This document shows, in pieces, positions 4,889 to 58,747 of a stretch of 64,000 nt of DNA. Within the stretch, counting starts at the first letter, position 1. Each line of letters begins with the position of its first letter. Source of the stretch: Staphylococcus phage vB_SsapH-Golestan-100. The stretch lies in the sequence record LC647030.1; one strand, 5' to 3'. Below the pieces are notes generated by a model that saw only the letters and a program-made list of their open reading frames with translations, ran no database searches and was not told where the DNA came from. Position numbers and translations under genes: made by a program.

Positions 4889-5421
4889 TGGATTATAGAA
4901 TAAGACAAACAAGTAGTTTACTAAGATTTTTAAAAACAATTGATGTCTCAGATGACACAAGAGTATTAGCTAATAGACTAGATGGTGAGCTAACTTTCAC
5001 TTCTAAGTACTATACTCCCAATTTAATACTAAGTGAGCTAGCAGTAAAAGCTTTACAAGACATAAAAAATAATGTAGTACCTTATACGGATACTGACATC
5101 AATAAGGAGAGTATAGTTAATAGCCTTAGAAAAACAGACTTAGCTATAAGAGAGCCTGGTGTTTACCAAATACTACAAACTATTGTATTAGAAGCGTTTG
5201 CATTAATAAACAGTGTTACTGAATCACCTACAGCCCTAAAGTATGTAACAAAGAAAGACATAGCTCTTACTAGAGATAACCTAAACTATGTATCTGATTA
5301 TTTAGGTGATTACCCTGATTACATTACTGTTTTAGATAAGCTAAGAGAACTAGACATCAGTTTTGGTTATATTGAGAACCAATTAGATTTAATGAAAGTA
5401 GGTGTTGTTGATGAGGTATAA
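4888..5421 (+). CDS. baseplate-associated protein (177 aa)
   Basis: ATGA stop/start overlap with the upstream gene, which suggests translational coupling. Position is in the baseplate cluster. Confidence 0.5.
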   Translation: MDYRIRQTSSLLRFLKTIDVSDDTRVLANRLDGELTFTSKYYTPNLILSELAVKALQDIKNNVVPYTDTDINKESIVNSLRKTDLAIREPGVYQILQTIVLEAFALINSVTESPTALKYVTKKDIALTRDNLNYVSDYLGDYPDYITVLDKLRELDISFGYIENQLDLMKVGVVDEV

Positions 5422-6118
5422 AAAGTATAGAATACAATACCAAGACACCGTACAAGGTATAGCACAAAGATTTTATGGAGATGTGAGTAGTTGGTTTGAA
5501 CTAGTAGAGTATAATAACTTAGAGTATCCTTATATAGTAGATACTAATGCAGAAAAACTTGAAAATTTAGAGCATTTAGTGACGATAGGTGATGAGCTTA
5601 TCATACCTATAGAGGATGATTTAGCTACATATGATGTAAGTAAAATAAACAAACATGACTCAAGTATTATGATGGATTGGTCTCTAGGCATGGATATAGA
5701 CATGCTTAGTGGTGAACAGACTTTTAAGAATCATGGTACAAGTGATGAGATTACAGAGTTAGACGCAGACCCTAGTACACATGACTTATCTTTAAGAAAA
5801 GGTGTATCTAATATGGTTCAGGCCTTAACTGCTAGACTCTTAACCGCTAGAGGTAGTTTATTATTACATCCTGATTATGGCTCAGAGTTACATAACCTAT
5901 TTGGTAAAGCTTTACCTGAGCAAGCATTGCTTATAGAAACAGAAATAACTAGATGTTTAATGAGTGATTCACGAGTAAAATCGGTAACACAAGATAACTA
6001 CACTATACAAGGAAATGAATACAAAGGAGCCTTTACGGTTGACTTAGAGTCTGTGGAGAAATCGTTAAGATTTGTATTAGAGGCAGACCCATCAGGAATT
6101 ATCGCTAGATTTGAATAG
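5411..6118 (+). CDS. baseplate wedge protein: N-terminal LysM-like domain fused to a gp25/GPW-like domain
   Basis: LysM-like segment YRIQYQDTVQGIAQRFYGDVSSW. GPW/gp25-like segment ALTARLLTARGSLLLHPDYGSELHNLFGK. The RBS AGGTG lies 7 nt before the ATG at 5411. Confidence 0.65.
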   Translation: MRYKKYRIQYQDTVQGIAQRFYGDVSSWFELVEYNNLEYPYIVDTNAEKLENLEHLVTIGDELIIPIEDDLATYDVSKINKHDSSIMMDWSLGMDIDMLSGEQTFKNHGTSDEITELDADPSTHDLSLRKGVSNMVQALTARLLTARGSLLLHPDYGSELHNLFGKALPEQALLIETEITRCLMSDSRVKSVTQDNYTIQGNEYKGAFTVDLESVEKSLRFVLEADPSGIIARFE

Positions 6119-15627: not shown

Positions 15628-17583
15628 ATGGCTTTTAAGTACACTAAAGTTCAAGATACAGACTACGTAAGAGAAATATCTCATACATTAAATAGTGTAG
15701 GGGACTACCTCCAAACTATGTCTAATGAACGTGATACATTACCAACATATTCTAGGTTAGTAGTTACAGATTCTGCTAGTCTACTACAAACAAACGTAGT
15801 ATACTACTTAACAAACATACAAGGATTCCCAACACAATTTGGTGCTAGTTATAATGGTTATGGTATGCTATTGAAACGTAACCCATCAGTAAACTATCAC
15901 ACATTTGTATTTTTACCTTACAATAGCTCAGTAGTATACTATAGAGTTTACAACGGAGCGTGGCAAGATTGGCAGAGTACTTTAACTACAGAAAATACTA
16001 CTAATTATCAGAAGTACGCTTTTACAGATGAGAAAGGTCAAGTAAGTAATAATAAATCTATAGACATTAAGAATACTACAGGCTACAGTAAGAGTAAAGG
16101 TACTCTAGTTGATGCACCAACTGAAGACTCTAAAGGATGGATAGATTATTCTGATACACAGGGTGGGGAAGCGTCACAAACACTATTTAACCCTACAGAA
16201 AGTACATCGTTATTTACAAAACAGAAGAAACAAGCAATTGTAAAACAAAATCCAAATATTATTCAAGATTCCTTATTTACAAATCATGTACCTTATACTT
16301 ATATATTCCAAAATGATACAAACTATTGGGGAACAAGTAAAGGAGTAGGTAGGGTAATAAGAACAGATAAAAAATTTAAAGGGCAGAATATAGTAGAATT
16401 AAATGACACTAAAGGTTCCTATAGTACTTTTAGAGGGAAAGCACTTACTGTAGGTGAAGGCAAAGACTTACAAGTAGGTAAAACTTATACTCTCTCAGCC
16501 TATGTTATGACACCTGATGTAAGTAAACTAAAAGAAAATTACCCTTATATAGAAGTGTCTTATCCATCGTCACTAGATGCTCAATCAAACCCAACTATAG
16601 ATAGTCAGCTAAATATAACAGGACTAGAGAATAATCAATGGAAAAGAGTATCTGTAACTTTCACTGTACCTAGTAATGTTGTTTACGCTAGACCAAATTT
16701 ACGGTTTAACATTGTTAAATCAGGAACTAATAATGGAGGTCTTGTATACTATGCATTACCAAAATTAGAGGAAGGTTCTGAAGCTACACCTTTTATTACT
16801 AATTCTAACGATTCAAAACAGTTTGATGAACTTTGGTCTAACTGGAATGAATATATTTCTAAAGAAAAATTAGCAGAAACTGCTACTACAGACATTCTAG
16901 GTAAAGTAGGATACTTTAAGTACCCTCTAACTAAAGAGTTCTTAGATAACTTAGGTATGGACTTTTACACTTATGTTGGTGACTTACCACAAGGATTCCA
17001 TACTTTCTATATGCAAAATGGTGCACCAGGTAATGTCTTTAATGATTCTGTCAGAGGTACTATCATGCTTGATTACTCTCAAGGTGACGAGATGTCTACT
17101 AATAAACGGTATGCAATAGTAGAGTGTGTAAATAATAAAGGGGTTCATTATAGTGCTTTCTTTGATTGGGGTAATGAGCCTAGACAAATAGTTAGACAAT
17201 CTGAAATGCAAACACTTCTATGGGAAGACTCTAGTTCTTTTGACTTAGCAACAGGCGGAACGATAACTTTAAATGATGATTACACTAACTATAAAGCTCT
17301 AGACTTTGTGGTATACTTCAGGTTATCTGCTACCTATAGGACTATAAGAGTATATCCAGTTGCATCTTCTATAGTAGTTAGAGACCTTAACTTAGCTAAT
17401 AATAACACCAATGCTAATTTAGATACTTATGAAGGTAATATGAGTCTTGTAGATAGTAAAACAATAAAAGCAGACTCTGCTAAACAATTGACACTGAACA
17501 TAGGTTCAGGTACTGAAAACATAGTATGGAATCAAACAAATACAATTAACATATATAAAATAATAGGTGTACACACAGTATAA
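15628..17583 (+). CDS. receptor-binding / tail fibre protein (651 aa)
   Basis: Called from position and size, and from its beta-rich C-terminal region. Confidence 0.5.
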   Translation: MAFKYTKVQDTDYVREISHTLNSVGDYLQTMSNERDTLPTYSRLVVTDSASLLQTNVVYYLTNIQGFPTQFGASYNGYGMLLKRNPSVNYHTFVFLPYNSSVVYYRVYNGAWQDWQSTLTTENTTNYQKYAFTDEKGQVSNNKSIDIKNTTGYSKSKGTLVDAPTEDSKGWIDYSDTQGGEASQTLFNPTESTSLFTKQKKQAIVKQNPNIIQDSLFTNHVPYTYIFQNDTNYWGTSKGVGRVIRTDKKFKGQNIVELNDTKGSYSTFRGKALTVGEGKDLQVGKTYTLSAYVMTPDVSKLKENYPYIEVSYPSSLDAQSNPTIDSQLNITGLENNQWKRVSVTFTVPSNVVYARPNLRFNIVKSGTNNGGLVYYALPKLEEGSEATPFITNSNDSKQFDELWSNWNEYISKEKLAETATTDILGKVGYFKYPLTKEFLDNLGMDFYTYVGDLPQGFHTFYMQNGAPGNVFNDSVRGTIMLDYSQGDEMSTNKRYAIVECVNNKGVHYSAFFDWGNEPRQIVRQSEMQTLLWEDSSSFDLATGGTITLNDDYTNYKALDFVVYFRLSATYRTIRVYPVASSIVVRDLNLANNNTNANLDTYEGNMSLVDSKTIKADSAKQLTLNIGSGTENIVWNQTNTINIYKIIGVHTV

Positions 17584-17598
17584 TAGGAGGTAATATAA

Positions 17599-17922
17599 AT
17601 GGCATGGGTTTACAATAATGTAGAAGCATCAGGTATGTGTTTATTAACAATAGATGAGATAGACCACAAAACGCTAGTTATGGACTTTATGACAGAGGGT
17701 TGGTATGATAACACTGACCCTAACTTAGTTCTTAAACCAAAAAGAATATGCCCTTATGTTTGGTTTGAAGGATTTGAAACTGACTATTGGTTTTTTGCAC
17801 CAATGAGGTTCATGATTTTAAGTGCACGAGAAGAAATAATAGAAGATACAGATTGGAAATACTACTACACAGGTAAAGATTCTATACCAACGCCAGGAAG
17901 AGGTGAGCCATACCCATGGTAA
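17599..17922 (+). CDS. hypothetical protein (107 aa)
   Basis: RBS aggagg. Confidence 0.45.
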   Translation: MAWVYNNVEASGMCLLTIDEIDHKTLVMDFMTEGWYDNTDPNLVLKPKRICPYVWFEGFETDYWFFAPMRFMILSAREEIIEDTDWKYYYTGKDSIPTPGRGEPYPW

Positions 17923-19292
17923 TACAATTTTCACCATTAACAAAAGACAATAATGTAAAAGACCTTTCAGAAACAGTTAATAGTATTGGAGCTGAGCTAA
18001 CTAAGAGTAATAACATATTTACTCAAGTTGATTCTATGTCCAAGACTTTGCAAAATGTTCAACAATTTACATTAACTAATAAGGATGGCTATTCTAAAGT
18101 ACCAGGTTCTTTGAAAAGTATCAGAGAATTGAGAGAGGCAGGTTATTACTATATATCTGCTTCTACTCTTGCTACTTTATCAGATGCCCCACCCGTTAAC
18201 TCTGATGTTGTAATTACTGTAATGCCTTCTTCAACAAAAGATTATTGCATACAGTACTTACATACGCTAAGAGCATCTATTAATCCTAGGGCATTGTTTA
18301 GATACGCTACTCCTTCAATGTCTACAGAGTGGTTATCCGTAGTTACAACACCGTTAACTATGAATACTACCATAAGTGATAAAGACTTAAACAAAGACGT
18401 TATAGATGTTGGAACTTATTACTTTTATAACCTTAAAGGCGTCCCAACAGGTATAACACGAGGGTTTTTAGATGTAAGGAAAGGGCAAAATGACTTAACT
18501 ATATATGAGATTACTAATGCTTCTACAGCTTTGAAATATACATCAATATTTTCACCTGACACAGGACTTTCTAGTTGGGTAGAGGAGACTACATTAGATA
18601 ATATAAATGACTATACTTTAGCAGGTAAGGAAGATAACTATACGTACCCTAGATTTGGACTATATATTTATAAATCAGATAACATATCCTTTGGGGATGC
18701 TGTACAGAAGAAGTTAAAAGAAACTAACCAAGGGTCTTTCACTTTCTATTGCCAAGGAGGAGTACCCGATGCTCCTAGCCAGTATTCAACACGAGGGTTA
18801 TTCATTTCTGATACACCTAAAGACTCAGGCTCTGCAACTAATCATGGTGTATACTACGCTATTGAGACTAGTGGTAAGTTGGTAACAGGAGCTTTGGCTA
18901 GTGATAAATGGTCTACGCCAAAGAAAGCTCCCTCTATAGATACCTTATGGACAGGTAATAAGTTATTTACAGATACAAGTAAGACTGAAAAGTTATCAGC
19001 ACCTATTACAGACTATGATTATGTAGAGATTTTTATTAAGCCTAGAGTAACAACTAACTCCTCAGGAGACGTATGGGACGTAGTAAACAATGAAGGTCGT
19101 AGGTTCTATATAGGTAATGATACCTTCTTTATCGTTTCAGGAACGATTGTAGACTCTAAAGCTAAGACTATAGGTGTTGACCATTATAGAGTGGACATCA
19201 GATTCGATGGAGATACTTTTAAAGTAGATGGTTCTGCTACTATAAACAAAAAAGCACATTATGTAACTAGAATCGTTGGTCATAGAGTTTAG
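17916..19292 (+). CDS. tail fibre protein (458 aa)
   Basis: Last gene of the structural run. Size matches the 458-aa tail fibre of Kayvirus-like phages (from recollection). Confidence 0.5.
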   Translation: MVIQFSPLTKDNNVKDLSETVNSIGAELTKSNNIFTQVDSMSKTLQNVQQFTLTNKDGYSKVPGSLKSIRELREAGYYYISASTLATLSDAPPVNSDVVITVMPSSTKDYCIQYLHTLRASINPRALFRYATPSMSTEWLSVVTTPLTMNTTISDKDLNKDVIDVGTYYFYNLKGVPTGITRGFLDVRKGQNDLTIYEITNASTALKYTSIFSPDTGLSSWVEETTLDNINDYTLAGKEDNYTYPRFGLYIYKSDNISFGDAVQKKLKETNQGSFTFYCQGGVPDAPSQYSTRGLFISDTPKDSGSATNHGVYYAIETSGKLVTGALASDKWSTPKKAPSIDTLWTGNKLFTDTSKTEKLSAPITDYDYVEIFIKPRVTTNSSGDVWDVVNNEGRRFYIGNDTFFIVSGTIVDSKAKTIGVDHYRVDIRFDGDTFKVDGSATINKKAHYVTRIVGHRV

Positions 19293-19295
19293 ACT

Positions 19296-19976
19296 TTAAG
19301 TACAGGATATTTCCTGTGCTTTTTTTTTCTCATACCTTCCAAAGTTGAATAGTCGATTTTCATCATCCTTATCTAATTGTTTTAATCCTGCGTCTAACTT
19401 CTGGTGTGCTTGTGCAATTTCTTTTTGGGATATTTTATTGATGTTGGTAACGCCTAACCAACGCATTGTTTTTTCTAACGTGGCATCTCTACCTTTTTCT
19501 TGAGAGATAGTTACAAATTGATTAATCTTTTCTTCAAGCTCAGTTACGTCATTATCATTGGCACTTGGTAATTCTTCACCGTTATAGATGTACAACCCTA
19601 GTCCATGTAACGCTGCCGCTTTAACGAAGCATCTTTTCTGTGCTTTGTTGATGTCGAATGTAGTTGCGCTACCTTTAGCTAATGATTTATTTCTAAAATC
19701 TAGTACAGGCAACCATTCGGTTTCAGTTTGTCCTTTAACCGTTACTGATACTTGAACAAAATAACCTTCTGGTGCAGCTAAATATGGAACGAAATAATCA
19801 TCTCTTTCAACATCTGGATGTGGAAACTCATGTGTTTTAATAGTGAAATTTGGGTCAATCTTCTTTAATTCTTGGTGTGCATATGACCATGCAAGATAAG
19901 TAAGTCCATTCTTTTTCTCTACATGATCGTTTACATTTTTGGAATTAAGTTGATTAAATAGTGTTTGTTCAGTCAT
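19296..19976 (-). CDS. Rad52/Sak-like single-strand annealing protein
   Basis: Segments GLTYLAWSYAHQEL and KRCFVKAAALHGLGLYIY resemble conserved Rad52/Sak blocks. The RBS AAGAGGTGG precedes the ATG at 19976. The track's start at 19997 is a TTG. Confidence 0.45.
   Translation of the reverse strand: MTEQTLFNQLNSKNVNDHVEKKNGLTYLAWSYAHQELKKIDPNFTIKTHEFPHPDVERDDYFVPYLAAPEGYFVQVSVTVKGQTETEWLPVLDFRNKSLAKGSATTFDINKAQKRCFVKAAALHGLGLYIYNGEELPSANDNDVTELEEKINQFVTISQEKGRDATLEKTMRWLGVTNINKISQKEIAQAHQKLDAGLKQLDKDDENRLFNFGRYEKKKAQEISCT
19300..19329. terminator. terminator hairpin gtacagga/tcctgtgc followed by a T9 run
   Basis: Read directly from the sequence. The 3' end of the minus-strand gene 19296-19976 is encoded through this hairpin. 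Confidence 0.6.
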
Positions 19977-20196
19977 AATCCACCTCTTCATATTCAACTG
20001 TTTCAGTCAGTGTTTTTTTAATTGCTGTGTGCTTTGTCATATCTATACTAGTGTTATCTAGTCCGTTAAAATCTTTTGCATCTCTTTTGTTAGTTGAGTA
20101 TTTAACGTCAGGAAACGATTCTGAAGGTCTGTTCATAATGTAGAGATCATCGTAATCGTCTTTACGTTTAATTAGATACGTGACTGTCTGTTTCAT
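19969..20196 (-). CDS. hypothetical small protein
   Basis: ORF inside the reversed cassette. The start codon is uncertain and the RBS is weak. Confidence 0.3.
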   Translation of the reverse strand: MKQTVTYLIKRKDDYDDLYIMNRPSESFPDVKYSTNKRDAKDFNGLDNTSIDMTKHTAIKKTLTETVEYEEVDYD

Positions 20197-20446
20197 CGCT
20201 AACCAACCTTTCACCAGCCAAAACTTCTTTAATAGCTTCGAATGACTGTTTAGCATCTTCTAGTTCATGCCAGTCATATATGTGTATTGAGCCATAGCCT
20301 TTTTCGTAGTAGTCGCTGAAATGTGTAAATGCGATACCTAGTGTTCCTTCATCAAATTGCTTGAATATAACATGTGCTTCTATGTCTGAATAGGCGAGCT
20401 TGATGTTTAAGTCGTAGGACATGTTGAGTAAACGGTGTTTATTCAT
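20168..20446 (-). CDS. hypothetical protein (93 aa)
   Basis: Strong RBS AAGGAGGTG lies 7 nt before the ATG at 20446. Confidence 0.45.
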   Translation of the reverse strand: MNKHRLLNMSYDLNIKLAYSDIEAHVIFKQFDEGTLGIAFTHFSDYYEKGYGSIHIYDWHELEDAKQSFEAIKEVLAGERLVSDETDSHVSN

Positions 20447-20570
20447 AAGTTTCCACCTCCTTATATTTCGATTTGTGATGGGTACACATAAAGTGCGTAT
20501 CTCATGTGGTACTATCAAAGATAGTAACCTTATATTGTGAGGTGGTAGTTAGCCACCTCGTGTGGTATAA

Positions 20571-21296
20571 TTAAATAAATAACAACATTGTATCTAATTT
20601 GTTTTTGTTATGTTTTCTCTTGTTATAAATCTCTGCCAGTGCTAGTGGTAGGGATTCTTTTTTCGTTTTAAATCCCACTTGTTTTTTAGTTGCTTCTTGG
20701 ATAAAGCCTTCATAACCAATTTCTTTCAAACGATTAATCAAATGTGACACATCTATTTTATTTCCGTAAGTAGCAATGAATTGTGCAAATCCTTTTATTA
20801 TAAACGCTTGGTAAAATCTTCTTTCTAGTCCAAATGATGATTTAATTACTTGTAGAACTATTTCTAAAAATTCTTTACCATATTTTTTATGAACGCTTTG
20901 CAATGAAGCATACGCAGTAATGTAACCTTCTTTTGTTCCCTTTTTATCGTAGTCAATACTTAAACCAACATTCTGAACAGCTTCTTCAATTTCAATTGCG
21001 TTTTGATCTCCAAACTTTAGTGATGATTTACCTTTTGAATTTGGCGATTTAGCAGGTCTGTCGTTAATGCCATAGTACATTTCAGCTTCTTCTTCCACCG
21101 TTAATCCTTCATGAACAGTAGAGTCTATAGTCGGTATACCTAATTCTTTTAGAGCTTCAACTCTATGTTGTCCATCTATTACGAAAAATTGTCCATTTTC
21201 CCTTTTGTTAACTACTATTGTGTGTAACTTTTGTGGGTCGAAGTTTTTAACTATTTTTTTAACTTGCGAATCCTTTACTGGCGACTGATAACTCAT
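20571..21296 (-). CDS. ParB/Srx-fold (ParB N-terminal-like nuclease domain) protein with a DGQHR motif
   Basis: Segment KKIVKNFDPQKLHTIVVNKRENGQFFVIDGQHRVEAL matches the ParB N-terminal/DGQHR signature. Confidence 0.6.
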   Translation of the reverse strand: MSYQSPVKDSQVKKIVKNFDPQKLHTIVVNKRENGQFFVIDGQHRVEALKELGIPTIDSTVHEGLTVEEEAEMYYGINDRPAKSPNSKGKSSLKFGDQNAIEIEEAVQNVGLSIDYDKKGTKEGYITAYASLQSVHKKYGKEFLEIVLQVIKSSFGLERRFYQAFIIKGFAQFIATYGNKIDVSHLINRLKEIGYEGFIQEATKKQVGFKTKKESLPLALAEIYNKRKHNKNKLDTMLLFI

Positions 21297-21348
21297 ATCT
21301 GTTTTTAAACTCGTTAACCTTCATTGTTCTCACTCTTGTTTTTTTTTG

Positions 21349-21377
21349 TTGCAAAATAAGTGAAAGTGTGGTATACT
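21349..21377 (+). promoter_or_regulatory. promoter TTGCAA-17-TGgTATACT for the helicase gene
   Basis: Read directly from the sequence. The helicase begins with a GTG at 21409, preceded by the RBS ataggagga. Confidence 0.5.
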
Positions 21378-21408
21378 AGTAAAAGACCATAGAATAGGAG
21401 GATTTATA

Positions 21409-23967
21409 GTGAAGATTATTGTAGACATTATAGACAGCAAGATAGAGTTTGAACCTGAAGATGAGCATTTAAAACCCGCTATTATCAACAGAGCACATAC
21501 TGATTTAGGTGCTAGAGACCCGAACTTTTTGCATGACAGAAGGTATAAGTTAGGTATATGGGATGGGATGATAGACTTTTACGATGCAAAAAACCATTCA
21601 TTCCCTACAGGCCTTCTAGAAAAAGTTATGATTATGCTAGGGGACATGCAGTCGCAGTATGGATTTACATATTCTGTAGAGGACTTCAGACCTGATACGT
21701 TTTTAGATGTTGATGAGATGGATGAGGAAATAGTTTTAAAGGATGAAGATTTAGGCTCCATAACACTTAGAGACTATCAGCATGATGCAGTAAAAGGTAT
21801 TATAGAACACATGAATGGTATTGTTAACCTAAGTACTAATGCAGGTAAATGTATCAATAAGAATACAAGAATACTTACAGCGCAAGGTTATAAAACACTA
21901 GAGGACATCTTTACAGAGCAAGGTATAAGTTTAGATGGTGATGAGGAAGTTATACCATTACAGTATACGCTCATTAATCGTTATGGAAAGAGAGAACAAA
22001 CAAGTCATTTTACAAAGAATGGTATTAAGCCTACTAAAGTGATAACTACACATAGAGGAACAACATTGAATACAACTTACAACCATCCCTTATTAGTAGA
22101 TAGAGAGGGTACACCTGAGTGGGTTAAAGCAGAGGACTTAAAAGCAGGAGACAAGCTATATGCTAGAGCTGGTGATAACATATTTGGCACAGATAAAACA
22201 GTTAGGTCTGAGAGTGAAGCTTATAGAAGAGGTGCTATACAATCTGCAACAAAACCTCTACCAAAGTATATTCATCAAGCACCAAGAAAGATACAATTAG
22301 CATTTCTTACTGGGTTTTTAAATCTTAGAGAAGGTATTGACTTACTAAAAACATTACATACCTATAATGAACGTATTGTAATAGAAAGTCCATGTAAAGA
22401 GCTATTAGAGGACTTACAGCTAGTTCTATCTAACCTAGGTATTCTATCTTCCCTAAAGGATACAGAAAAATCTTCTTTTACATATTACGGTTTATTGGAT
22501 GTATATGAAGGGCAAGAAGAGTTGAATATAGAAACGCAAACCTATTTACAAGAAGTTGTTTCTATAGAAGAGGGAGAAGAGATTCCTACATTTGATGTTA
22601 GTATGCCTGAGACAAACTCATTCATAGGACAGGGGATTATAAACCATAATACAGAAGTAGCTAGTGGAATCATTCAGCAGTTACTCCCTCAGTTAGAAAG
22701 AGGAGAGCGTATTGCTTTCTTCACTAATAACTCATCTATCTTTTACCAGTCAGCTAAACGTATAGGAGATAGATTAGGTATTAAAGTAGGATTATATGGT
22801 GGAGGTAAAAAAGACATACAACAAGTTACATGCGTAATGTTACCTACGATACATGCTGGGTTGACAGACCCTGAAAAAAATGTTAAACTAACTGAGAAAG
22901 AAAGATTATTTAAACGTATAGCTAAAGAGGTACTACCTCAGTTTGAATCAGGAGTAAACCAACGTTATCTACTGAAGCTATTTATTGACCGTTTTGAACC
23001 TAAGACCAAAGTTGACTTAAAGTTTAAGCATGAGCTTGAAGAGGTCTTACATAGAAGTGGTTCTGATAGTGAAGTATTGATGAACTTAACAAAGTATGCT
23101 AAGCTATATAGAGAAACAATACAGAAGAAAAATAATAAAGTATATAAGAAGAATAAAGAAGTGGTAGACTTCTTAGAGAGTGTTTCTGTTATGATTTGTG
23201 ATGAAGCACACCATACGTCAGCAGATACTTGGTACTACTCACTCAGACGATGCATCAATGCTCAATACAGAGTAGCCCTAACAGGTTCAATAGAAGAGAG
23301 CAATGAACTACTCGTAATGAGGCTGAAATCAGTATTTGGAGAGATAGTAGCTAAAGTAAGAAACAAACAAATGATTGAAAGAGGATTTTCTGCTAAACCT
23401 ATCATAAAAGTTTTTCCTGTAACTCAACCTAAAGACATATCAGGATTAAAAGAGTTCCAAGAAATATACAGGAAAGGTATAGTTGAGAATGAGTATAGAA
23501 ACCTGTTGATGGCTAAACTAACTAAAACATTAAACACACAAGGTAAAACAACACTATTGATAGTAAACCATACAAAACATGGAGAGGCATTAGTAGAGTT
23601 ATTAGAGCAACTAGAGATAGACCATAGATTCATTCATGGTCAATTATCTACAGAGTATAGAGAAGAGTCATTACAATTAGTGAGAGATGGGAAACTAGAT
23701 GTTCTCATAGCCACATCTATTGTAGATGAAGGTGTAGACATCTCAGCTATTGACGCTTTAATACTTTGTGCAGGAGGTAAATCTTTACGACAAACCCTTC
23801 AGCGTATAGGTAGAACATTAAGAAAGAAAAAAGGTGACAATACCTGCCAAGTATTTGATTTCACCGATTACACACATGACATTTTACTTTCACACTCTAA
23901 GAAGAGAAGAAAAATATATGTAGAAGAAGAGTTTGAGATAGTTGACATACAGCCAAAAGCAAAATAA
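21409..23967 (+). CDS. SF2 DNA helicase (DEAH-box) interrupted by an intein
   Basis: Walker A reads STNAGK|T. Motif II is MICDEAHH and motif VI is QRIGRTLRK. The host protein is about 585 aa once the intein is removed. Confidence 0.7.
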   Translation: MKIIVDIIDSKIEFEPEDEHLKPAIINRAHTDLGARDPNFLHDRRYKLGIWDGMIDFYDAKNHSFPTGLLEKVMIMLGDMQSQYGFTYSVEDFRPDTFLDVDEMDEEIVLKDEDLGSITLRDYQHDAVKGIIEHMNGIVNLSTNAGKCINKNTRILTAQGYKTLEDIFTEQGISLDGDEEVIPLQYTLINRYGKREQTSHFTKNGIKPTKVITTHRGTTLNTTYNHPLLVDREGTPEWVKAEDLKAGDKLYARAGDNIFGTDKTVRSESEAYRRGAIQSATKPLPKYIHQAPRKIQLAFLTGFLNLREGIDLLKTLHTYNERIVIESPCKELLEDLQLVLSNLGILSSLKDTEKSSFTYYGLLDVYEGQEELNIETQTYLQEVVSIEEGEEIPTFDVSMPETNSFIGQGIINHNTEVASGIIQQLLPQLERGERIAFFTNNSSIFYQSAKRIGDRLGIKVGLYGGGKKDIQQVTCVMLPTIHAGLTDPEKNVKLTEKERLFKRIAKEVLPQFESGVNQRYLLKLFIDRFEPKTKVDLKFKHELEEVLHRSGSDSEVLMNLTKYAKLYRETIQKKNNKVYKKNKEVVDFLESVSVMICDEAHHTSADTWYYSLRRCINAQYRVALTGSIEESNELLVMRLKSVFGEIVAKVRNKQMIERGFSAKPIIKVFPVTQPKDISGLKEFQEIYRKGIVENEYRNLLMAKLTKTLNTQGKTTLLIVNHTKHGEALVELLEQLEIDHRFIHGQLSTEYREESLQLVRDGKLDVLIATSIVDEGVDISAIDALILCAGGKSLRQTLQRIGRTLRKKKGDNTCQVFDFTDYTHDILLSHSKKRRKIYVEEEFEIVDIQPKAK
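21850..22650 (+). mobile_element. intein (267 aa) inserted in the helicase P-loop between GK and T
   Basis: Begins CINKN (Cys1) and has block B TTH...NHPLL. It ends IINHN, and the +1 extein residue is Thr. A degenerate LAGLIDADG-like segment LAFLTGFLNLREG is present. Confidence 0.6.
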
Positions 23968-43692: not shown

Positions 43693-43721
43693 AAGCTAGG
43701 TTATCACCTAGCTTTCATTTT
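43693..43721 (+). terminator. hairpin aagctaggt/acctagctt followed by a weak T tract
   Basis: Read directly from the sequence. Confidence 0.4.
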
Positions 43722-43755
43722 GAATAAATTATATAAAAAAAGGAGTTTTATATAC

Positions 43756-45048
43756 ATGTCACGTAAAAAACAAAGTGAAAACACGAACACAACACAGGTG
43801 GCAGGAGAACCACTAGATGCCTTATCAGTATTGAAACTAGGTAAAGATGTAGGTTTGACACTAATGAGAGATAATACTTACGCTAATGTATCTAATTGGC
43901 TACCTACAGGTATCCCTCAATATGATAGGATTTTAGGAGGCGGTATTCCTTTTGGTCGTGTAACTGAGATTTTTGGTAAGAAGGCATCAGGTAAGAGTAC
44001 ATTTGCTTTAGCCTTATCAAAACAAGCTAGTGACCTTGATGTAGTAACTGTATGGATTGACGTAGAAGGAACTAGTGACATAAACCGTTTAACTCAGTTA
44101 GGGATTGACACTGAAAAGGTTTTTGCTATTCAGCCTGAATTTAACCCTAAAACTAACATGGTAGACCCACTTACAGTAGAGATTATTGGTGAGAAGATTG
44201 AGAACCTATTAAAGGTATTTAGAGATAACAGTCCCAATACACCTCTCTTAATCATATGGGACTCAATCGCAGCCACTTCATCTAAGGTAGAGATGGAAAG
44301 TGACTATGACTCAGAAAGACCTGGTTTAAAAGCTAAATCTCTAGCTAAGTTCTTTAACAAAGTAACACCATTAGTAAATGGTTATAACGTAGCTTTAGTT
44401 TGTATTAACCAAGCTCGTGATGTCATGGGTGGTAGCTTTGGTCATGGAGACAACATTGATTCTCCAGGAGGTAAAGCTCTTGAACACGTTGTATCACTTC
44501 AATTACTAGTTAACCAAGTAGATGCTAGTAAGTTTAATCAGAAAAAACCGACTTCTGCTAGTCAATATGGTGACTATGTAGGACATAACATGCAAGTAAC
44601 GACTAAAAAATCTAAAGTATCTAGACCTAACCAAAAAGCTAAAGCTTTCATTGCTAGTGAATATGAGTTAGATGATGGTACAGAGATTAATGGTTTTGAC
44701 CCTATGGTTAACTTTGCTATGTCAGCAGACAACAATAAGATTTTAGATTCTAGAGGTTCTTGGAAAGTGTTTGTAGATAAGCATGGTCAAGAACATAAGA
44801 AATACATGAAAGACTGGACAATGTTCTTTTACTATAATGAAGACCCTGAACTAATTGAAGAGATTGTAGGTAGAACTTACTTCAAGATGTTCCAAAAAGG
44901 ATACCCTGCATTTAATAATCAGATAATTGATGTTTCTAATAAGCTAGGTATGAAAGAACTAAAACGTTTGTTTGAAGAGAAAGAAGCTACAGAGAACTCA
45001 CAAGCAGAAGAAAGTGAGGTAAGTACAGATGGAAGCACAGAAGACTAA
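43756..45048 (+). CDS. RecA/UvsX-like recombinase
   Basis: Walker A GRVTEIFGKKASGKSTFALAL. The RBS aaaaaggag precedes the ATG at 43756. Confidence 0.7.
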   Translation: MSRKKQSENTNTTQVAGEPLDALSVLKLGKDVGLTLMRDNTYANVSNWLPTGIPQYDRILGGGIPFGRVTEIFGKKASGKSTFALALSKQASDLDVVTVWIDVEGTSDINRLTQLGIDTEKVFAIQPEFNPKTNMVDPLTVEIIGEKIENLLKVFRDNSPNTPLLIIWDSIAATSSKVEMESDYDSERPGLKAKSLAKFFNKVTPLVNGYNVALVCINQARDVMGGSFGHGDNIDSPGGKALEHVVSLQLLVNQVDASKFNQKKPTSASQYGDYVGHNMQVTTKKSKVSRPNQKAKAFIASEYELDDGTEINGFDPMVNFAMSADNNKILDSRGSWKVFVDKHGQEHKKYMKDWTMFFYYNEDPELIEEIVGRTYFKMFQKGYPAFNNQIIDVSNKLGMKELKRLFEEKEATENSQAEESEVSTDGSTED

Positions 45049-51155: not shown

Positions 51156-51185
51156 TAGGTATAGTCAATTAGAGGAGGAATTAAT

Positions 51186-51524
51186 ATGAGAATGGTTAGT
51201 ATATATGAGTATTTCAAAGACAAGGAAGGACAACGGTTGAGTGTAGGAGATAATAAAGAGGTACTGTTCAACTCAGTACGTTACCACGGTTCTGAAGAGG
51301 AGTTGGCTTTATACTTTAAGTATAAGGAGTACCCAATAGCAATAAGAGTAGATAAACCTCAAGCAGATTTAAGATTACGATTAAACAAGAAGATAACAGG
51401 GCTACAAAAGGATACCTTTACCCCTGTAGAGAACCTAGACTCAACCTTATTAACCTATCTAGGTAAGTTTGCAGAAGAGATGGAAGAAAAAGTAGAGTAT
51501 AAACTATTTGATTGGAGGAATTAA
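51186..51524 (+). CDS. hypothetical protein (112 aa); paralog of the minus-strand 129-aa ORF at 53367-53756
   Basis: RBS agaggagg. Segment YEYFKDKEGQRLSVGDNKEVLFNSVRYHGSEEELALYFKYK aligns with the 129-aa protein. Confidence 0.5.
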   Translation: MRMVSIYEYFKDKEGQRLSVGDNKEVLFNSVRYHGSEEELALYFKYKEYPIAIRVDKPQADLRLRLNKKITGLQKDTFTPVENLDSTLLTYLGKFAEEMEEKVEYKLFDWRN

Positions 51525-51525
51525 T

Positions 51526-51627
51526 ATGGTTACAGTAGGAGCGTTATTTACAGGATTCTTTGTAGTCCTTGTAATAGGTATAATGATAGCAGGACTCGTT
51601 ACACTAGTAATAGATAACAAGAAGTAA
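51526..51627 (+). CDS. 33-aa hydrophobic peptide with a single TM helix
   Basis: RBS GGAGGA lies 7 nt upstream. The ATG is 1 nt after the upstream stop. The peptide is MVTVGALFTGFFVVLVIGIMIAGLVTLVIDNKK. Confidence 0.35.
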   Translation: MVTVGALFTGFFVVLVIGIMIAGLVTLVIDNKK

Positions 51628-51650
51628 ATAAGAGAAGCGGAGGAGATATA

Positions 51651-51878
51651 ATGAGTTTAGTAACAGTAATAGTATTAACTGTAGTCATAGCCATGTTGTT
51701 AGGCTTAATAGCAAGTAAACTAATATTGTGGTTTGTAGATGCTTGTCAAAGGGATGAGAACAATATAACAGAGATTAGAGTAGTATTAACCCTATTAATA
51801 GTCAGCTTAGGAGTAGACCTAGCCTTTGCTGTTGATGGAGCAGTAAGAATACAAAATAGAATCCTATACTTTTTGTAG
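51651..51878 (+). CDS. small membrane protein (75 aa)
   Basis: RBS ggaggag. Two hydrophobic helices. Confidence 0.45.
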   Translation: MSLVTVIVLTVVIAMLLGLIASKLILWFVDACQRDENNITEIRVVLTLLIVSLGVDLAFAVDGAVRIQNRILYFL

Positions 51879-51885
51879 ATAGAAG

Positions 51886-51912
51886 CGGAGACCTTTACGG
51901 TCTCTTTTTTTT
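51886..51912 (+). terminator. rho-independent terminator
   Basis: Stem gagacc/ggtctc followed by a T8 run. Confidence 0.6.
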
Positions 51913-51960
51913 GTCTATAATAGCTTGACAAATAGGGTGAAGTATGCTTTATTGACAAAG

Positions 51961-52250
51961 GCGTAATAGTGTGGTAGTGGAGGGTAGAGGTTGAATAGTA
52001 GTGACATGGAGGCTGATAGATAGAGTCGAAGTCGGTTAGCGTGCTTGGGGCTTCCTCTATTCTTTTACCATTTGTTTATTTCCTTCCTCTACTATTCCTC
52101 CCTTTGATTGGCTGATTAATTGTTTGGTTGTTTCTCTATTACTCTTCCCTTCCTTACTCCCTATGCTATTGTCCCTCTATTGTTTTCCTACTCCTCCATT
52201 ACTCTACTCCTATATAATAAAAGGCAATAGAGCTATTACCCTACTGCCTT
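51961..52250. other. non-coding strand-asymmetric region, a candidate structured RNA or cis-acting site
   Basis: No ORF of 60 codons or more. Plus strand is C-poor (G/A/T) over 51961-52040 and almost pure C/T over 52050-52215, with degenerate CCTCTAyT repeats. Confidence 0.3.
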
Positions 52251-52283
52251 TATACTTACTATTGTTATTACTATTATTATACT

Positions 52284-53276
52284 CTACATGTTAAGTAACT
52301 TACGAGCCCAATCAGGAGAATTATCACAAAACGCTTTAACTTCTTCTATGTTATTTATAACCCCTTTTTGAATCTTGTAGATATACACAAAGTATTTAGT
52401 TATGAAAGCTTGGAAAGGTTCATACCTATTACCCTCTATAAACTCATACTGCATCTCTTCTGATAATAAATTTATCTCTGTAAAGAATGTATTATACATA
52501 GTATCAAATAAGCAAGGTATATCCTTACTATACTCACTTAGTAATAGTATTCTTTCCTCATGACTTAGCGATACATCAAAATCAATAATACTTTTAATAG
52601 TTTTAGGTAATGAGTCGTAGTCTAGTAGTATAGATAATAGTTCTTTCTTATTAAATATAAGGTTGAGTTTCTTGTATGCGACTATAAAGTCTTCTTTGAC
52701 TACCTTTTTATCTACTAAGTCTTGTAATTTACTGTAATAGTTTTTAATTTGTTTATTCATATTAACCTTAGTAAATGCTGTCTCTAGATTATAAAATTCT
52801 TGTATAGAACTACTCTCTATATTAACACCTAACTTATGTTTAAGCCATTTTGATTCTAGCTCAGATAGTCTACGTTCATAGATAGATTCATCTTTTGTTT
52901 CTATATGGTCTCCATGTATAGAGTCATAGTATACAGCATCAATTATATAAGTATCAGCATTATCAAATCCGTATTTATCTAAGGCTTTTTTAAGTAGTTT
53001 ACCACTACCCTTATACTTTGAATCGGGCTTTCCTTTATGTTTCCCTATATATGCTCTACCTGATTGTTTAAACACTGTTATATAGACATAACCATACATA
53101 TGTTCTGAAAGTTTTTCAGACTGACCTCTTACGCTATGACCAAAAGTAAAAACATAGCTATAATGTTTTAATCTTCCTTTTCTACATTCTGATTGTACAA
53201 TGTTATTTCTAACGTCTCTTACTTGAATTTCACCTAAACCTTCTTGGTATACAAAATTATTTATTTTTTCTGTCAT
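52284..53276 (-). CDS. free-standing GIY-YIG homing endonuclease
   Basis: Segment YGYVYITVFKQSGRAYIGKHKG, then KYGFDNAD and ESKWL, follows an I-TevI-like arrangement. The RBS AGGAG lies 9 nt before the ATG at 53276. Confidence 0.65.
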   Translation of the reverse strand: MTEKINNFVYQEGLGEIQVRDVRNNIVQSECRKGRLKHYSYVFTFGHSVRGQSEKLSEHMYGYVYITVFKQSGRAYIGKHKGKPDSKYKGSGKLLKKALDKYGFDNADTYIIDAVYYDSIHGDHIETKDESIYERRLSELESKWLKHKLGVNIESSSIQEFYNLETAFTKVNMNKQIKNYYSKLQDLVDKKVVKEDFIVAYKKLNLIFNKKELLSILLDYDSLPKTIKSIIDFDVSLSHEERILLLSEYSKDIPCLFDTMYNTFFTEINLLSEEMQYEFIEGNRYEPFQAFITKYFVYIYKIQKGVINNIEEVKAFCDNSPDWARKLLNM

Positions 53277-53306
53277 ATCTTTCATCTCCTTATTTGATAT
53301 ACTACT

Positions 53307-53335
53307 AGTATATAATAAAACTCTATCCAAGTCAA
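53307..53335 (-). promoter_or_regulatory. minus-strand promoter TTGACT-17-TATACT, with the -35 element in the loop of hairpin 53319-53346
   Basis: Read directly from the sequence. Confidence 0.5.
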
Positions 53336-53366
53336 TAGATAGAGTTAAAATAGTTATTTTGTTTTC

Positions 53367-53756
53367 TTACTTGTTATCCCACTCAAAGTCTAGTTCTAAG
53401 TCATTTATCTCTCCTGAGTTAACTTTCTCTATAAACCCTTCTAACTGGTGTTTAATAGCTGTACTGAAAGTAGATATAGGTACTACAATAACCATAGAGG
53501 CCTGAACTTTTTTATCTATTAAGAATTTTAAACAATTATCATCTTCAGTACCTTTTATAGTTATTCTTAAATCCATGCCTTTATAGCTGAACACTAAGTA
53601 TAAGCTCTCATCACTACTTAAATTTCTATGGCTTACATAGGATAGATATACCTCATAACTACCTACTTTTAATCTCATGTTTTCTCTTTCTTGAAAATAG
53701 TCACTGAGCTTACTTATGTTATAATTATCCATATTCTCCTCCTTATTATTTACCAT
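53367..53756 (-). CDS. hypothetical protein (129 aa); paralog of the plus-strand gene 51186-51524
   Basis: RBS ggagga. Confidence 0.5.
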   Translation of the reverse strand: MVNNKEENMDNYNISKLSDYFQERENMRLKVGSYEVYLSYVSHRNLSSDESLYLVFSYKGMDLRITIKGTEDDNCLKFLIDKKVQASMVIVVPISTFSTAIKHQLEGFIEKVNSGEINDLELDFEWDNK

Positions 53757-53944
53757 CGTTCAATAGATACAATATGTTTGGTGTCAATAATAACCTTTTT
53801 ATCTTTACCCCATTTAGTTACTTCTATATAATCATTACCCATAACATCTCTGTATACAGAACCTAACGCTTTGTAACTATTATAATAGGTGTATTTTCTA
53901 TCATCAACAGTTCTTACTGTGTAGTTATATTTTCTACTTATCAT
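53750..53944 (-). CDS. hypothetical small protein (64 aa)
   Basis: ORF in the early-gene block. Confidence 0.35.
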   Translation of the reverse strand: MISRKYNYTVRTVDDRKYTYYNSYKALGSVYRDVMGNDYIEVTKWGKDKKVIIDTKHIVSIERW

Positions 53945-54144
53945 TATAGTTCCTCCTCATCAAACCACATTTCTAATACAGTGTCTGTTTCTGTATCTAT
54001 ATATAAATTTAACTCCCCGTGCATATAATGACTAATTACATCAGAGTCTGAGAACCCTACTTCATGACCGTCCCAATCTGACAACCAATGTAATCTATGA
54101 TAATCTAAATTTTCTAGTGTTATTCCTTGTTCAGTATTTAACAT
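53944..54144 (-). CDS. hypothetical small acidic protein (66 aa)
   Basis: RBS ggaagga. Confidence 0.4.
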   Translation of the reverse strand: MLNTEQGITLENLDYHRLHWLSDWDGHEVGFSDSDVISHYMHGELNLYIDTETDTVLEMWFDEEEL

Positions 54145-54190
54145 TCTTTGACTCTCCTTCCAAGTTAAAAGTTAGTTTCAATTTCTACTA

Positions 54191-54544
54191 TTACCAACTA
54201 ATATGAATAATAGGAACTAAAGTACTATCTGTATAGCCACAGTTAAAGTAATCCTTAGCTATACCCTTCTCTGACCATCTAGGTTTCCTAACTTGTGTCT
54301 GTACTTTAAATCCTAACCTCTTATAGTGAAGCCCAATCTCTTTTAAGTACTCTAGCTTAGATAAAGAAAACTCCGTAGGATAATCTGTTCTTAGGTTCAC
54401 AACAATATAGTCCTTACCTAAGCTACTACTGTTATTAATTAAGTAGTCTATCTTGTTATAGATATATGTTAAATGTTGTTCCTTAGTTATTACTTTAGAA
54501 TCCTTATGCTGTTTTACTTGTTTACGTGCTTTCTTAGCGTTCAT
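54191..54544 (-). CDS. hypothetical protein (117 aa) with a basic N-terminus
   Basis: N-terminus MNAKKARKQVKQHK resembles the N-terminus of the ORF at 59274-59627. Confidence 0.45.
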   Translation of the reverse strand: MNAKKARKQVKQHKDSKVITKEQHLTYIYNKIDYLINNSSSLGKDYIVVNLRTDYPTEFSLSKLEYLKEIGLHYKRLGFKVQTQVRKPRWSEKGIAKDYFNCGYTDSTLVPIIHISW

Positions 54545-54546
54545 CC

Positions 54547-54774
54547 TTATTCCTCCTTATAAATTTTATTTTTAAAAAAGCCTACTACATCCTCAACATC
54601 GAGTACAGATAGAAATGATTTATTTCCTGTAATTCTAAAGCCACTGTCTACGATTCTATTTGCAATGTAATAACCCTCAACCTTTAGTGATGCATATTTA
54701 TTATCTATGTCTCCTAAAAATTCTACTTGAAATCCTAACTGATTTAATTGAACATAAATGTCTGACAAGCTCAT
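54547..54774 (-). CDS. hypothetical protein (75 aa from the internal ATG); possible paralog of the plus-strand 81-aa ORF at 48286
   Basis: RBS GGAGG lies 7 nt before the ATG at 54774. TAATG links its start to the stop of the upstream ORF. Confidence 0.4.
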   Translation of the reverse strand: MSLSDIYVQLNQLGFQVEFLGDIDNKYASLKVEGYYIANRIVDSGFRITGNKSFLSVLDVEDVVGFFKNKIYKEE

Positions 54775-54980
54775 TATAATTCCTCCTTCTCTTTCCTGAT
54801 TGCACTTAGTAGCCAATCAAGATACTTCTCACGTTGAATCTCTTCTATCTTGCTTTCAAACTTATCACGTTCTAGTCCTTGGTTTATTATTCTAGAAGCT
54901 ACTGCTAATCTCTTTGACTCTTCACTTAGATTATCCTTGTAACTGTAAGTAACTAGTGCTTTATCTAAATCTAGTTCCAT
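54774..54980 (-). CDS. hypothetical small protein (68 aa)
   Basis: RBS ggaggag. Confidence 0.4.
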   Translation of the reverse strand: MELDLDKALVTYSYKDNLSEESKRLAVASRIINQGLERDKFESKIEEIQREKYLDWLLSAIRKEKEEL

Positions 54981-54998
54981 ACTATCTCCTCCTTAGTC

Positions 54999-55436
54999 CT
55001 ATTTTAATCTACCTTGCTCTAAACTTACATTAGTATAGTTATTTTTTAAATCTTCGAGAGTCATTCTTTTAGATAAACTATAATTCTCATCTAGTAGTCT
55101 ATAAACTTGATATTCATTTCTTTCTGCATAGTAACTACTCTCTTCTACTACTAAAGTAAACCATTCTCCATATGCTTCGATGTCATCTCCAGGTAGCCAA
55201 TCATTTTCTGTGAGTAGTTCTAAAACTTTAATTAGCATGTCATTATCCGACCAATGCCTTCTACCACCTGTTTCATTTTCTTGACGAGTGATATAACTAT
55301 CATAACCTATGCAAACCTTAACCTTATTGTTAATACCTACTGCTTCTTCATATAAATCTACGTGATTTAGTTCGATACCTTTTTCACTCATAGCTTTTAC
55401 AATTAAACTTAATAATTCTGTTGTGTTATCTACCAT
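54999..55436 (-). CDS. hypothetical protein (145 aa); weak similarity to the plus-strand 140-aa ORF at 48596
   Basis: RBS aggagg. Confidence 0.45.
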   Translation of the reverse strand: MVDNTTELLSLIVKAMSEKGIELNHVDLYEEAVGINNKVKVCIGYDSYITRQENETGGRRHWSDNDMLIKVLELLTENDWLPGDDIEAYGEWFTLVVEESSYYAERNEYQVYRLLDENYSLSKRMTLEDLKNNYTNVSLEQGRLK

Positions 55437-55448
55437 TATAGTTCCTCC

Positions 55449-55909: not shown

Positions 55910-55939
55910 TATAAACCTCCTCTATTAGTTGTTAATATG

Positions 55940-55977
55940 ATTATATAATAAAAAACTACCTATGTCAATAGGTAGTT
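55940..55977 (-). promoter_or_regulatory. composite minus-strand terminator and promoter
   Basis: 10-bp hairpin 55954-55977 followed by a T-run. TTGACA spans the loop and stem (55963-55968). A 17-nt spacer leads to TATAAT at 55940-55945. Confidence 0.55.
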
Positions 55978-55985
55978 TTAGCTTA

Positions 55986-58742: not shown

Positions 58743-58747
58743 ATTTC

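Follow-up and report, generated by a model that had tools for sequence, protein, structure and literature searches.

A compact block of four genes lies in reverse orientation between the tail-fibre gene and the replication genes of the Staphylococcus phage vB_SsapH-Golestan-100 (LC647030.1), and this locus raises the question of where the block came from and whether it serves the phage as a functional unit. In the stretch of 64,000 nucleotides (nt) analysed here, referred to as the window, plus-strand open reading frames (ORFs) of at least 90 amino acids (aa) span positions 68 to about 51,524, the exceptions being a few shadow ORFs and the four minus-strand ORFs of the cassette, at 19296-19997, 19969-20256, 20168-20518 and 20571-21296. 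The sign of the AT skew reverses across exactly the cassette interval. Profile searches matched all four products to known families far above chance. The first-pass annotation had described a reversed four-ORF cassette that breaks a co-directional run of plus-strand genes and encodes a ParB/Srx-fold protein with a DGQHR motif, two small unknown proteins and a Rad52-like annealase. The layout was borne out by the ORF listing, in which the plus-strand run extends over about 51 kb, and the assignments agree with the profile matches, which include PF06378 (DUF1071) for the annealase and DUF6551 for the ParB-like protein. The cassette is best explained, with good confidence, as the very recent capture of part of the early lytic operon of a temperate phage by a strictly lytic myovirus of the Twortvirinae type. 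The origin and structure of the cassette, as described below, can be held with greater confidence still, while any functional role for it is doubtful.

The insertion site and its empty counterparts

A megablast search with positions 17500 to 23000 returned only two close relatives, the S. capitis phages S2G3 and Fi4S2, of about 153 kb, in which both flanks are matched at 93-99% identity and the cassette is not. The foreign insert comprises 2,010 bp (19329-21338, minus strand) and has no counterpart in either phage; it is flanked by a run of nine T residues on each side, where the empty site has a single run of ten. In S2G3, the tail-fibre stop codon, a hairpin, the T10 run and the helicase promoter are contiguous, with 98 nt from the stop codon to the helicase start, while in the window the order is hairpin, T9, insert, T9 and promoter. 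When the insert was removed to give a synthetic empty-site construct, the result aligned in one piece, over 100% of its length, to S2G3 and to Fi4S2. The more distant Twillingate (Sepunavirus) and Mammaliicoccus phage PMS3 also lack the cassette and have the receptor-binding gene followed by a gap of about 90 nt and the helicase, with a terminator annotated in Twillingate. Since outgroups and close relatives alike are without the cassette, the empty site is ancestral. Over 33 kb of sequence collinear with S2G3, at 93-97% identity, the cassette is the only insertion specific to the window. S2G3 has three insertions of its own, at positions corresponding to about 27700, 35112 and 41170 of the window, where the window genes are uninterrupted. 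These are a 1,881-bp insertion with a transposase that splits an SbcD-like gene, a 933-bp insertion with a homing endonuclease in the gene for the large subunit of ribonucleotide reductase, and a 1,088-bp insertion with an HNH endonuclease in the DNA polymerase gene.

The signals on both sides of the insert were preserved. The intrinsic terminator of the tail-fibre gene (19298-19328, plus strand) consists of a 10-bp hairpin and the left T9 run (19320-19328) and is intact; the hairpin at 19298-19321 has a predicted folding energy of -16 kcal/mol, with a z-score of -4.5, and is followed by U9. The same hairpin is followed by T10 in S2G3. On the other side, the right T9 run (21339-21347, plus strand), which duplicates the target T-run, precedes the intact helicase promoter TTGCAA-17-(TG)TATACT (21349-21377, plus strand), in which a single base, located in the -10 element, differs from S2G3 (TGGTATACT in the window, TGATATACT in S2G3). 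The helicase gene, which contains an intein, begins at 21409. Owing to the duplication of the T-run, neither the U-tract of the terminator nor the T-tract upstream of the promoter was lost, and the sparing of both signals may be the reason why the insertion was viable. The cassette is indeed head-to-head with the helicase promoter, as had been noted from the sequence, with its first ATG (21296) located 53 nt from the -35 element and pointing away from it, and its last ORF does extend across the tail-fibre terminator hairpin, which it reads as the reverse complement. The suggestion that this is an acquired accessory island is thus upheld, as far as acquisition goes, by the empty sites in S2G3 and Fi4S2 and the absence of the cassette from Twillingate and PMS3, together with a 99.9% identity to temperate phages.

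With regard to the neighbouring genes, the last one before the insertion site is the tail-fibre or receptor-binding gene (17916-19292, plus strand), whose product has an ORF68_C domain (PF23624, E=8.6e-31) and whose S2G3 homologue is annotated as a tail fiber protein. On the far side, the helicase gene (21409-23967, plus strand) encodes an Intein_splicing domain at residues 156-414 with a LAGLIDADG-like segment, and the intein is also present in the S2G3 and Twillingate homologues. Elsewhere in the window lies the replication set that is standard for Twortvirinae, including the intein-containing helicase, a DnaB-like helicase, an Mre11/Rad50-like nuclease, a primase, PolA and RecA. The RecA-like recombinase that had been ascribed to this set was located at 43720-45048 (PF00154, E=6e-28).

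The donor operon and the four junctions

The source of the insert emerged from a protein search of a collection of 5.8 billion sequences, which returned a protein with 98% identity to the DUF6551 product (P0001) and one identical to Sak over 207 aa (P0041). Both sit on contigs of about 40 kb, from at least eight independent sequencing runs, where the gene order is integrase, CI, Cro, ParB_N (295 aa), DUF6551 (255 aa), DUF771, a 57-aa ORF, the 92-aa ORF, DUF2483, Sak (209 aa), SSB, HNHc_6, DnaB_2 and DnaB helicase. The insert is 99.9% identical to these donor contigs, with one substitution and one indel in 2 kb. Alignment by blastn to one of them, L026, resolved the insert into three pieces, all co-linear and in the same orientation relative to the donor. 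The first (window 21316-20443, L026 4115-4987; 874 bp, no mismatches and one indel) extends from codon 9 of the DUF6551 gene to the start of the DUF771 gene, the second (window 20447-19356, L026 5517-6608; 1,092 bp, one mismatch) contains the 92-aa ORF, the DUF2483 gene and sak, and the third (window 19358-19325, L026 8015-8048; 34 bp) derives from within the gene for the DnaB_2 replication initiator. The closest cultured relative of the donor contigs is the S. saprophyticus phage phiRS7, with 85.6% identity over 46% of the query, and cultured temperate staphylococcal siphoviruses (80α, 85, EW, IMEP5, phiRS7, PH15 and others) have the same early-lytic-operon genes at 66-79% nt identity.

As judged from these alignments, the direction of transfer, from temperate phage to myovirus, is clear, because the temperate phages have complete genes within an operon, while those of the window are truncated and patched. 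Comparison of the identities likewise places the capture after the split from S2G3, since the insert is 99.9% identical to its donor and the flanks are 93-97% identical to S2G3. These figures also bear on whether the cassette might instead be ancestral and have been lost from S2G3 and Fi4S2 when the T9 runs recombined. Direct T9 repeats do flank the segment, as such a deletion would require, but this reading is effectively refuted by the difference in identity between insert and flanks, by the outgroups without the cassette and by the distribution of its genes. In the phage collection, DUF6551 homologues occur among staphylococcal phages only in siphoviruses of 42-46 kb and otherwise in non-staphylococcal phages, and none of the Sak-bearing records in a 60-row spread of 521 exceeds 61 kb. 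A Twortvirinae-type phage with these genes therefore appears unusual among the records sampled. In IMG/VR, a DUF6551 protein-guided scan returned relatives of at most 70% identity, all on contigs of at most 46 kb, while the same scan of GTDB genomes found nothing. The DUF6551, Sak and tail-fibre proteins of the window have no exact match in a public contig index, where no sister genome with the same insertion was found, and a 44-mer across the right junction has no match in IMG/VR.

Four junctions, here named A to D and described in the sense of the cassette, join the pieces to one another and to the myovirus genome, with microhomologies of 0-5 nt. At junction A, the host sequence ending in TTGCAAC-A9 is followed by a 22-nt filler, CAAGAGTGAGAACAATGAAGGT (21317-21338, minus strand), which separates the right T9 run from the first donor-homologous base, in codon 9 of the DUF6551 gene. 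The filler has no second copy in the window, no match in the donor stretches fetched and no exact match in IMG/VR or GTDB genomes, and blastn against the phage collection gave only matches at chance level. Junction B (20443-20447, minus strand) is an internal deletion of 529 bp, donor positions 4988-5516, which contain the DUF771 gene and the 57-aa ORF. It lies at a TATGA microhomology around both start codons, with one extra T, and fuses the strong ribosome-binding site (RBS) of the DUF771 gene (AAGGAGGTG) to the ATG of the 92-aa ORF. Junction C, which falls at the SSB start codon, joins sak at a 3-nt microhomology (AAT) to a scrap located 1,406 bp downstream in the donor and so removes SSB, HNHc_6 and the 5' part of DnaB_2. 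The scrap itself comprises 30 nt (19329-19358, minus strand; L026 8015-8044, with the match extended into the A-run to 8048) and, being out of frame, encodes part of the Sak tail. At junction D, it meets the A-run of the host with 0-1 nt of homology. A 27-nt "filler" at the 3' end, at one stage regarded as unexplained sequence, was dropped as such once it was traced to the donor DnaB_2 gene. Transposons, insertion sequences and homing elements were ruled out as well: neither a transposase nor an endonuclease domain was found in the four proteins, and the ends of the insert lack inverted repeats. The duplicated T-run is the sole feature of the insert that resembles a target-site duplication.

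This anatomy suggests how the capture may have proceeded. The myovirus would have copied part of the recombination and replication operon of a phiRS7-like temperate staphylococcal siphovirus, most likely during growth in a lysogen, and the copy would have been inserted in inverted orientation into the T-run that separates the terminator hairpin of the tail-fibre gene from the helicase promoter, with duplication of the run. The microhomologies, the co-linear forward jumps, the filler and the re-entry into the same homopolymer with its duplication argue for microhomology-mediated illegitimate recombination or for serial template switching at a replisome stalled on the hairpin and the homopolymer, which together make a plausible stall site. 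It is equally possible that a larger segment was captured at first and was then trimmed by deletions.

The same junctions can also be read as the inheritance of damage that predated the transfer. According to this alternative, a remnant prophage in the propagation host had already lost DUF771, the 57-aa ORF, SSB, HNHc_6 and the 5' part of DnaB_2 and already contained the 22-nt filler, so that the capture needed only two junctions and neither template switching nor later deletion took place in the myovirus. Decayed prophages with internal deletions are common, the internal pieces are all co-linear and in the same orientation, and the filler is missing from every intact donor stretch fetched, all of which would fit such a remnant. 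Nevertheless, in the 11 contigs with an identical Sak, the deletions were found in none of the eight places read, and no Sak ending in the RLFNFGRYE sequence encoded by the scrap was found in the 5.8-billion-sequence collection, where the top matches are all 206-209 aa long. The degraded remnant is therefore rather unlikely, though it deserves to be kept in view.

A third way to obtain such a structure would be an assembly chimera, produced if the assembler had wrongly attached reads of an induced prophage in the lysate to the myovirus contig, at the low-complexity T/A run. In favour of this, each outer junction is situated in a homopolymer, the donor, as a temperate phage, could be present in a lysate as a contaminant, and the exact window proteins are missing from the public contig index. 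However, it is rare for a chimera to leave a contig and re-enter it at one and the same place with a clean insertion in between, or to contain a pair of internal deletion junctions along with a 22-nt filler and a 30-nt scrap that originates 1.4 kb further downstream; moreover, the ORFs are all open, with a strong RBS fused precisely to the next ATG. An artefact of this type has very little probability, and recent capture by the myovirus itself is the reading followed below.

The cassette genes and their expression

Located first in the cassette, the DUF6551 gene (20571-21296, minus strand) encodes 241 aa, where the donor gene encodes 255 aa. Its product matches PF20188 with 70.7 bits (cutoff 26.8, E=1.7e-19) and the 'ParB-like' phrog_1033 (E=7e-35), and the DGQHR motif lies within VIDGQHRVEAL, with D41, G42, Q43, H44 and R45 invariant in 33 homologues. 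An AlphaFold2 (AF2) model with a predicted local distance difference test (pLDDT) score of 90.5 was compared with the PDB by Foldseek, and the top 50 matches were mostly Noc, ParB/Spo0J, KorB, PadC, sulfiredoxin (Srx) and SbnI, together with Atu1540. The statistics of this comparison are modest, with a best E of 3e-3 at a probability of 1.0, and the sequence matches to SbnI and Srx are weak; the predicted structure nonetheless confirms a ParB/Noc/KorB/Srx-like fold for the N-terminal domain. Two related assignments were rejected. A canonical ParABS system is not supported, given that neither the cassette nor the donor operon contains a ParA-like gene and PF02195 appears only as a 'faint' precomputed match, and the DndB or DGQHR-domain family is matched far below its cutoffs (TIGR03187, 20.7 bits against 58.85; TIGR04172, 14.6 against 450; PF14072, 12.4 against 29.1).

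The captured copy of this gene lacks the first 14 donor codons, the RBS, the promoter and the overlapping upstream ParB_N partner, to which the donor gene is translationally coupled. The first in-frame start is a conserved internal Met with no Shine-Dalgarno sequence 5' of it. Since it is without RBS, N-terminus and partner, the truncated ParB-like gene is probably a passenger. A short upstream ORF in another frame (21262-21327, minus strand; MKVNEFKNRYELSVASKGFAS*) runs from within the 22-nt filler across the start codon of the DUF6551 gene; it could influence translation of the RBS-less gene or be meaningless.

For the other three genes, domain boundaries and RBSs point to starts inside the listed ORFs, at 20446 for the 92-aa ORF, 20196 for DUF2483 and 19976 for Sak (M8, with a good Shine-Dalgarno sequence). 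The 92-aa ORF (20168-20446, minus strand), which stands behind the RBS of the deleted DUF771 gene, belongs to PHROG 3119 (phrog_3119, E=2e-25). The DUF2483 gene (19969-20196, minus strand; 75 aa, PF10656, E=3e-34) overlaps the start of sak by 8 nt, as in the donor. The AF2 models of its product are partly consistent, with a best pLDDT of 84 and three of five models below 50, and a Foldseek comparison with the PDB was uninformative as to its fold, with no match better than E=0.17. In staphylococcal phages, DUF2483 genes are located upstream of single-strand annealing proteins (SSAPs) of the Erf, Sak4 and Sak3 types, at the position taken elsewhere by Mu Gam-like genes (PMC8093625).

This linkage is also seen in the temperate phages related to the donor, which share ParB_N/DUF6551 genes at 95% nt identity yet swap the annealase in the same slot, L024 and EW having ERF there and L026 and phage 85 having Sak (L024 11674-12568 against L026 5768-6617; L005 8285-8726). 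DUF2483 accompanies ERF in the former pair and Sak in the latter, always 5' of the annealase, and SSB and an HNHc_6/DUF968 gene follow on the 3' side in L024, L026 and phage 85, while the EW locus ends inside the ERF gene. The slot is a hotspot of SSAP swapping.

The last gene, sak (19296-19976, minus strand), encodes a Rad52-like single-strand annealing protein (Sak/DUF1071) of 226 aa, of which residues 1-207 are identical to the donor P0041. The protein matches PF06378 over residues 13-149 with 132 bits (cutoff 22.3, E=1.6e-38), phrog_659 with E=4e-82 and, over residues 2-205, the structure of Sak80α (PDB 8qe9, E=2.7e-121; also 8pq8), and it has 84.5% aa identity to 80α Sak over residues 1-206. 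In the donor, SSB overlaps the 3' end of sak and is missing from the insert, a feature of context and not a criterion of the family. At the C-terminus, the protein has lost its final 2 aa and the gene its original stop codon, and a 19-aa neo-tail, RLFNFGRYEKKKAQEISCT, stands in their place; within this tail, RLFNFGRYE comes from the out-of-frame DnaB_2 scrap, KKK from the A9 run and AQEISCT from the reversed terminator hairpin. The stop codon of the ORF, at 19296-98, is separated by three bases from that of the tail-fibre gene.

The expression of these genes is less evident. No sigma-70-like site was found between 21297 and 21338, and thus no cassette promoter lies between the cassette and the helicase promoter; likewise, no minus-strand terminator follows sak, where the reversed hairpin is weak and without a U-tract. 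A candidate promoter, TTAACA-17-TATAAT (21799-21827, minus strand), lies some 500 nt upstream of the cassette, within the helicase gene and antisense to it. It is one of six minus-strand sigma-70-like sites with at least 11 of 12 matches in the 64 kb, the other five of which belong to the genuine minus-strand block at 51-62 kb. S2G3 has TATGAT at the same place, a synonymous codon difference. The 92-aa ORF, DUF2483 and sak have usable RBSs and the truncated DUF6551 gene has none, so that the candidate site (21827-21799), if active, would give the products of the former three. As regards the minus-strand block, the genes change from the plus to the minus strand at about 52 kb (about 51,500-52,300), and the five strong sites there, at 51168-62056, fit an early or host-takeover block. 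Within the cassette, two plus-strand sites with a terminator-like hairpin and T-run (19442-19463 and 20628-20656) lie antisense to sak and DUF6551, respectively; they might stop read-through from the tail-fibre operon or be due to chance.

If it is expressed, Sak would be expected to form Rad52-like rings that anneal complementary single-stranded DNA, beside the RecA/UvsX-type pathway of the phage. The 80α homologue does so and is needed for phage replication (PMC5499656, PMC11846896), and its C-terminal domain works with the acidic tail of the cognate SSB (PMC5499656; PMC11846896). By this analogy, Sak is the sole cassette protein with a demonstrated activity, and the best guess is that it would add RecA-independent single-strand annealing at reduced efficiency, because the cognate SSB is missing. 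Carrying it may also be a liability, since SaPI2-type satellites sense staphylococcal phage recombinases: these proteins are inducers and targets of the SaPI2 repressor Stl2, and a Sak-Ssb fusion with a changed C-terminus evades Stl2 sensing (PMC5779228).

A stronger version of this idea would make the capture adaptive. A working annealing module, consisting of the 92-aa protein, DUF2483 and Sak, would have been taken from a resident prophage by replicative template switching, would be expressed from the antisense promoter, sharpened from TATGAT to TATAAT, and would be used for RecA-independent recombination-dependent replication or to bypass a defence that targets the RecA/UvsX-type recombinase. 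This is unlikely; if true, it would be a natural example of 'non-transducing, non-lysogenic' therapeutic myoviruses gaining prophage functions.

The suggestion of the first-pass annotation, that the four genes could form an anti-defence, repair or DNA-targeting nuclease module, fares worse. A selected accessory system of any of these kinds, including a ParB-like nuclease that works with an annealase, would be consistent with four ORFs that are all intact, with the consistent linkage of DUF2483 to SSAPs of several families (PMC8093625) and with the in vitro binding of CTP or ATP by phage proteins in which a ParB-CTPase fold is joined to DUF6551, and for which a role in phage-host conflict has been speculated (bioRxiv 10.1101/2025.10.10.680097). 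Nonetheless, the four genes are not one adjacent unit in the donors, where two other genes intervene, and what was captured is a ragged operon slice in which the ParB-like gene is decapitated and separated from its coupled ParB_N partner, the SSB is missing and there is no promoter or terminator of its own. The near-identity to the donor leaves no time for selection as a unit. In PADLOC, the one match was a weak one between the N-terminal domain of DUF6551 and PD-Lambda-5_A (5e-5, 46 residues), with no partners and with the other three proteins unmatched, and NCBIfam models gave only sub-threshold matches to the cassette proteins. It is hence highly unlikely that the cassette was selected as a coherent system, and of the original proposal the acquired island stands while the functional system does not.

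Several observations also weigh against recent capture as set out here, or limit what it can be taken to mean. The structure is known from a single genome without reads, which makes an assembly artefact possible, the multi-junction structure could predate the capture and have arisen in a degraded prophage, and the 22-nt filler has no match above chance in the sequences searched. Furthermore, the cognate SSB was not captured, though 80α Sak needs it in vivo and for annealing SSB-coated DNA (PMC5499656; PMC11846896), the extreme C-terminus of Sak was altered, with 19 aa in place of 2, and the one promoter that could be proposed is a site in the helicase gene that matches the consensus and lies 500 nt from the cassette. 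Finally, the insert is too young to show selective maintenance, because one substitution and one indel in 2 kb allow no reading on selection.

Relation to known systems and significance

All four proteins belong to described families and no new biochemistry is implied. Among the closest counterparts of the cassette is the early lytic operon of phiRS7-like phages, represented by Logan contigs L026, L028, L029, L030 and L032, which has the same genes in the same order; the cassette is 99.9% identical to contigs of the L026 type and has 66-76% nt identity to the cultured relatives phiRS7, EW, 85 and IMEP5. The window has only a slice of it, without ParB_N, DUF771, the 57-aa ORF, SSB and everything downstream, and in a foreign orientation and context. 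Compared with the sak gene of 80α (ORF16; Sak/Sak3/DUF1071; PDB 8PQ8, 8QE9), that of the window similarly has DUF2483 on its 5' side with an 8-nt overlap, but it is located in a lytic Herelleviridae-type genome with RecA, has no downstream SSB or HNHc_6 and no native promoter, and ends in a 19-aa read-through tail. The DUF6551 protein resembles the orphan ParB-CTPase-fold proteins fused to this domain, with a PF20188 match above the cutoff, a ParB/Noc/KorB/Srx fold and DGQHR where ParB has GxxR, and differs from them in the 14 residues missing from the N-terminus and in the absence of ParA and of a ParB_N partner. Like a moron, the insert is an extra segment between conserved genes that is present or absent among close relatives; unlike a moron, it is an operon fragment without its own promoter or terminator and not a self-contained transcription unit.

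The gain of recombinase-region DNA from a resident prophage is a likeness to virulent lactococcal phages (ul36/P335, under AbiK pressure). The acquisition of prophage DNA, sak regions included, by these phages and the mosaicism driven by Rad52-like recombinases have reportedly been treated by Labrie and Moineau in 2007 and by De Paepe et al. in 2014. In such cases, recombination between homologous or homeologous sequences exchanges one homologous module for another, whereas the insertion in the window is additive, intergenic and inverted, with 0-5 nt of microhomology and no homologous module. SSAPs tolerate short or diverged homology (PMC5499656, PMC8093625). A literature search for prophage-gene capture by kayviruses returned a study of host-range mutants of phage 812, in which the changes were internal rearrangements only (PMC6445280).

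The event is a horizontal capture of prophage DNA by a virulent phage, which is of a known kind and is recorded here in unusually clear forensic detail. The microhomology junctions, the templated scrap from 1.4 kb away and the duplicated homopolymer provide a rare natural record of how phage mosaicism starts, before selection tidies the result. It also bears on what a Rad52-type annealase might do to recombination and fitness in a RecA-type phage, and to the sensitivity of such a phage to satellites that sense recombinases, such as SaPI2. With regard to the family, a strictly lytic staphylococcal phage of the Herelleviridae type appears to have copied 2 kb from a temperate phage, with junctions resolved to the base and a donor that is 99.9% identical. 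This class of phages is favoured for therapy on the assumption that its members do not exchange genes with prophages, and the cassette indicates that such "safe" lytic phages can take up prophage DNA.

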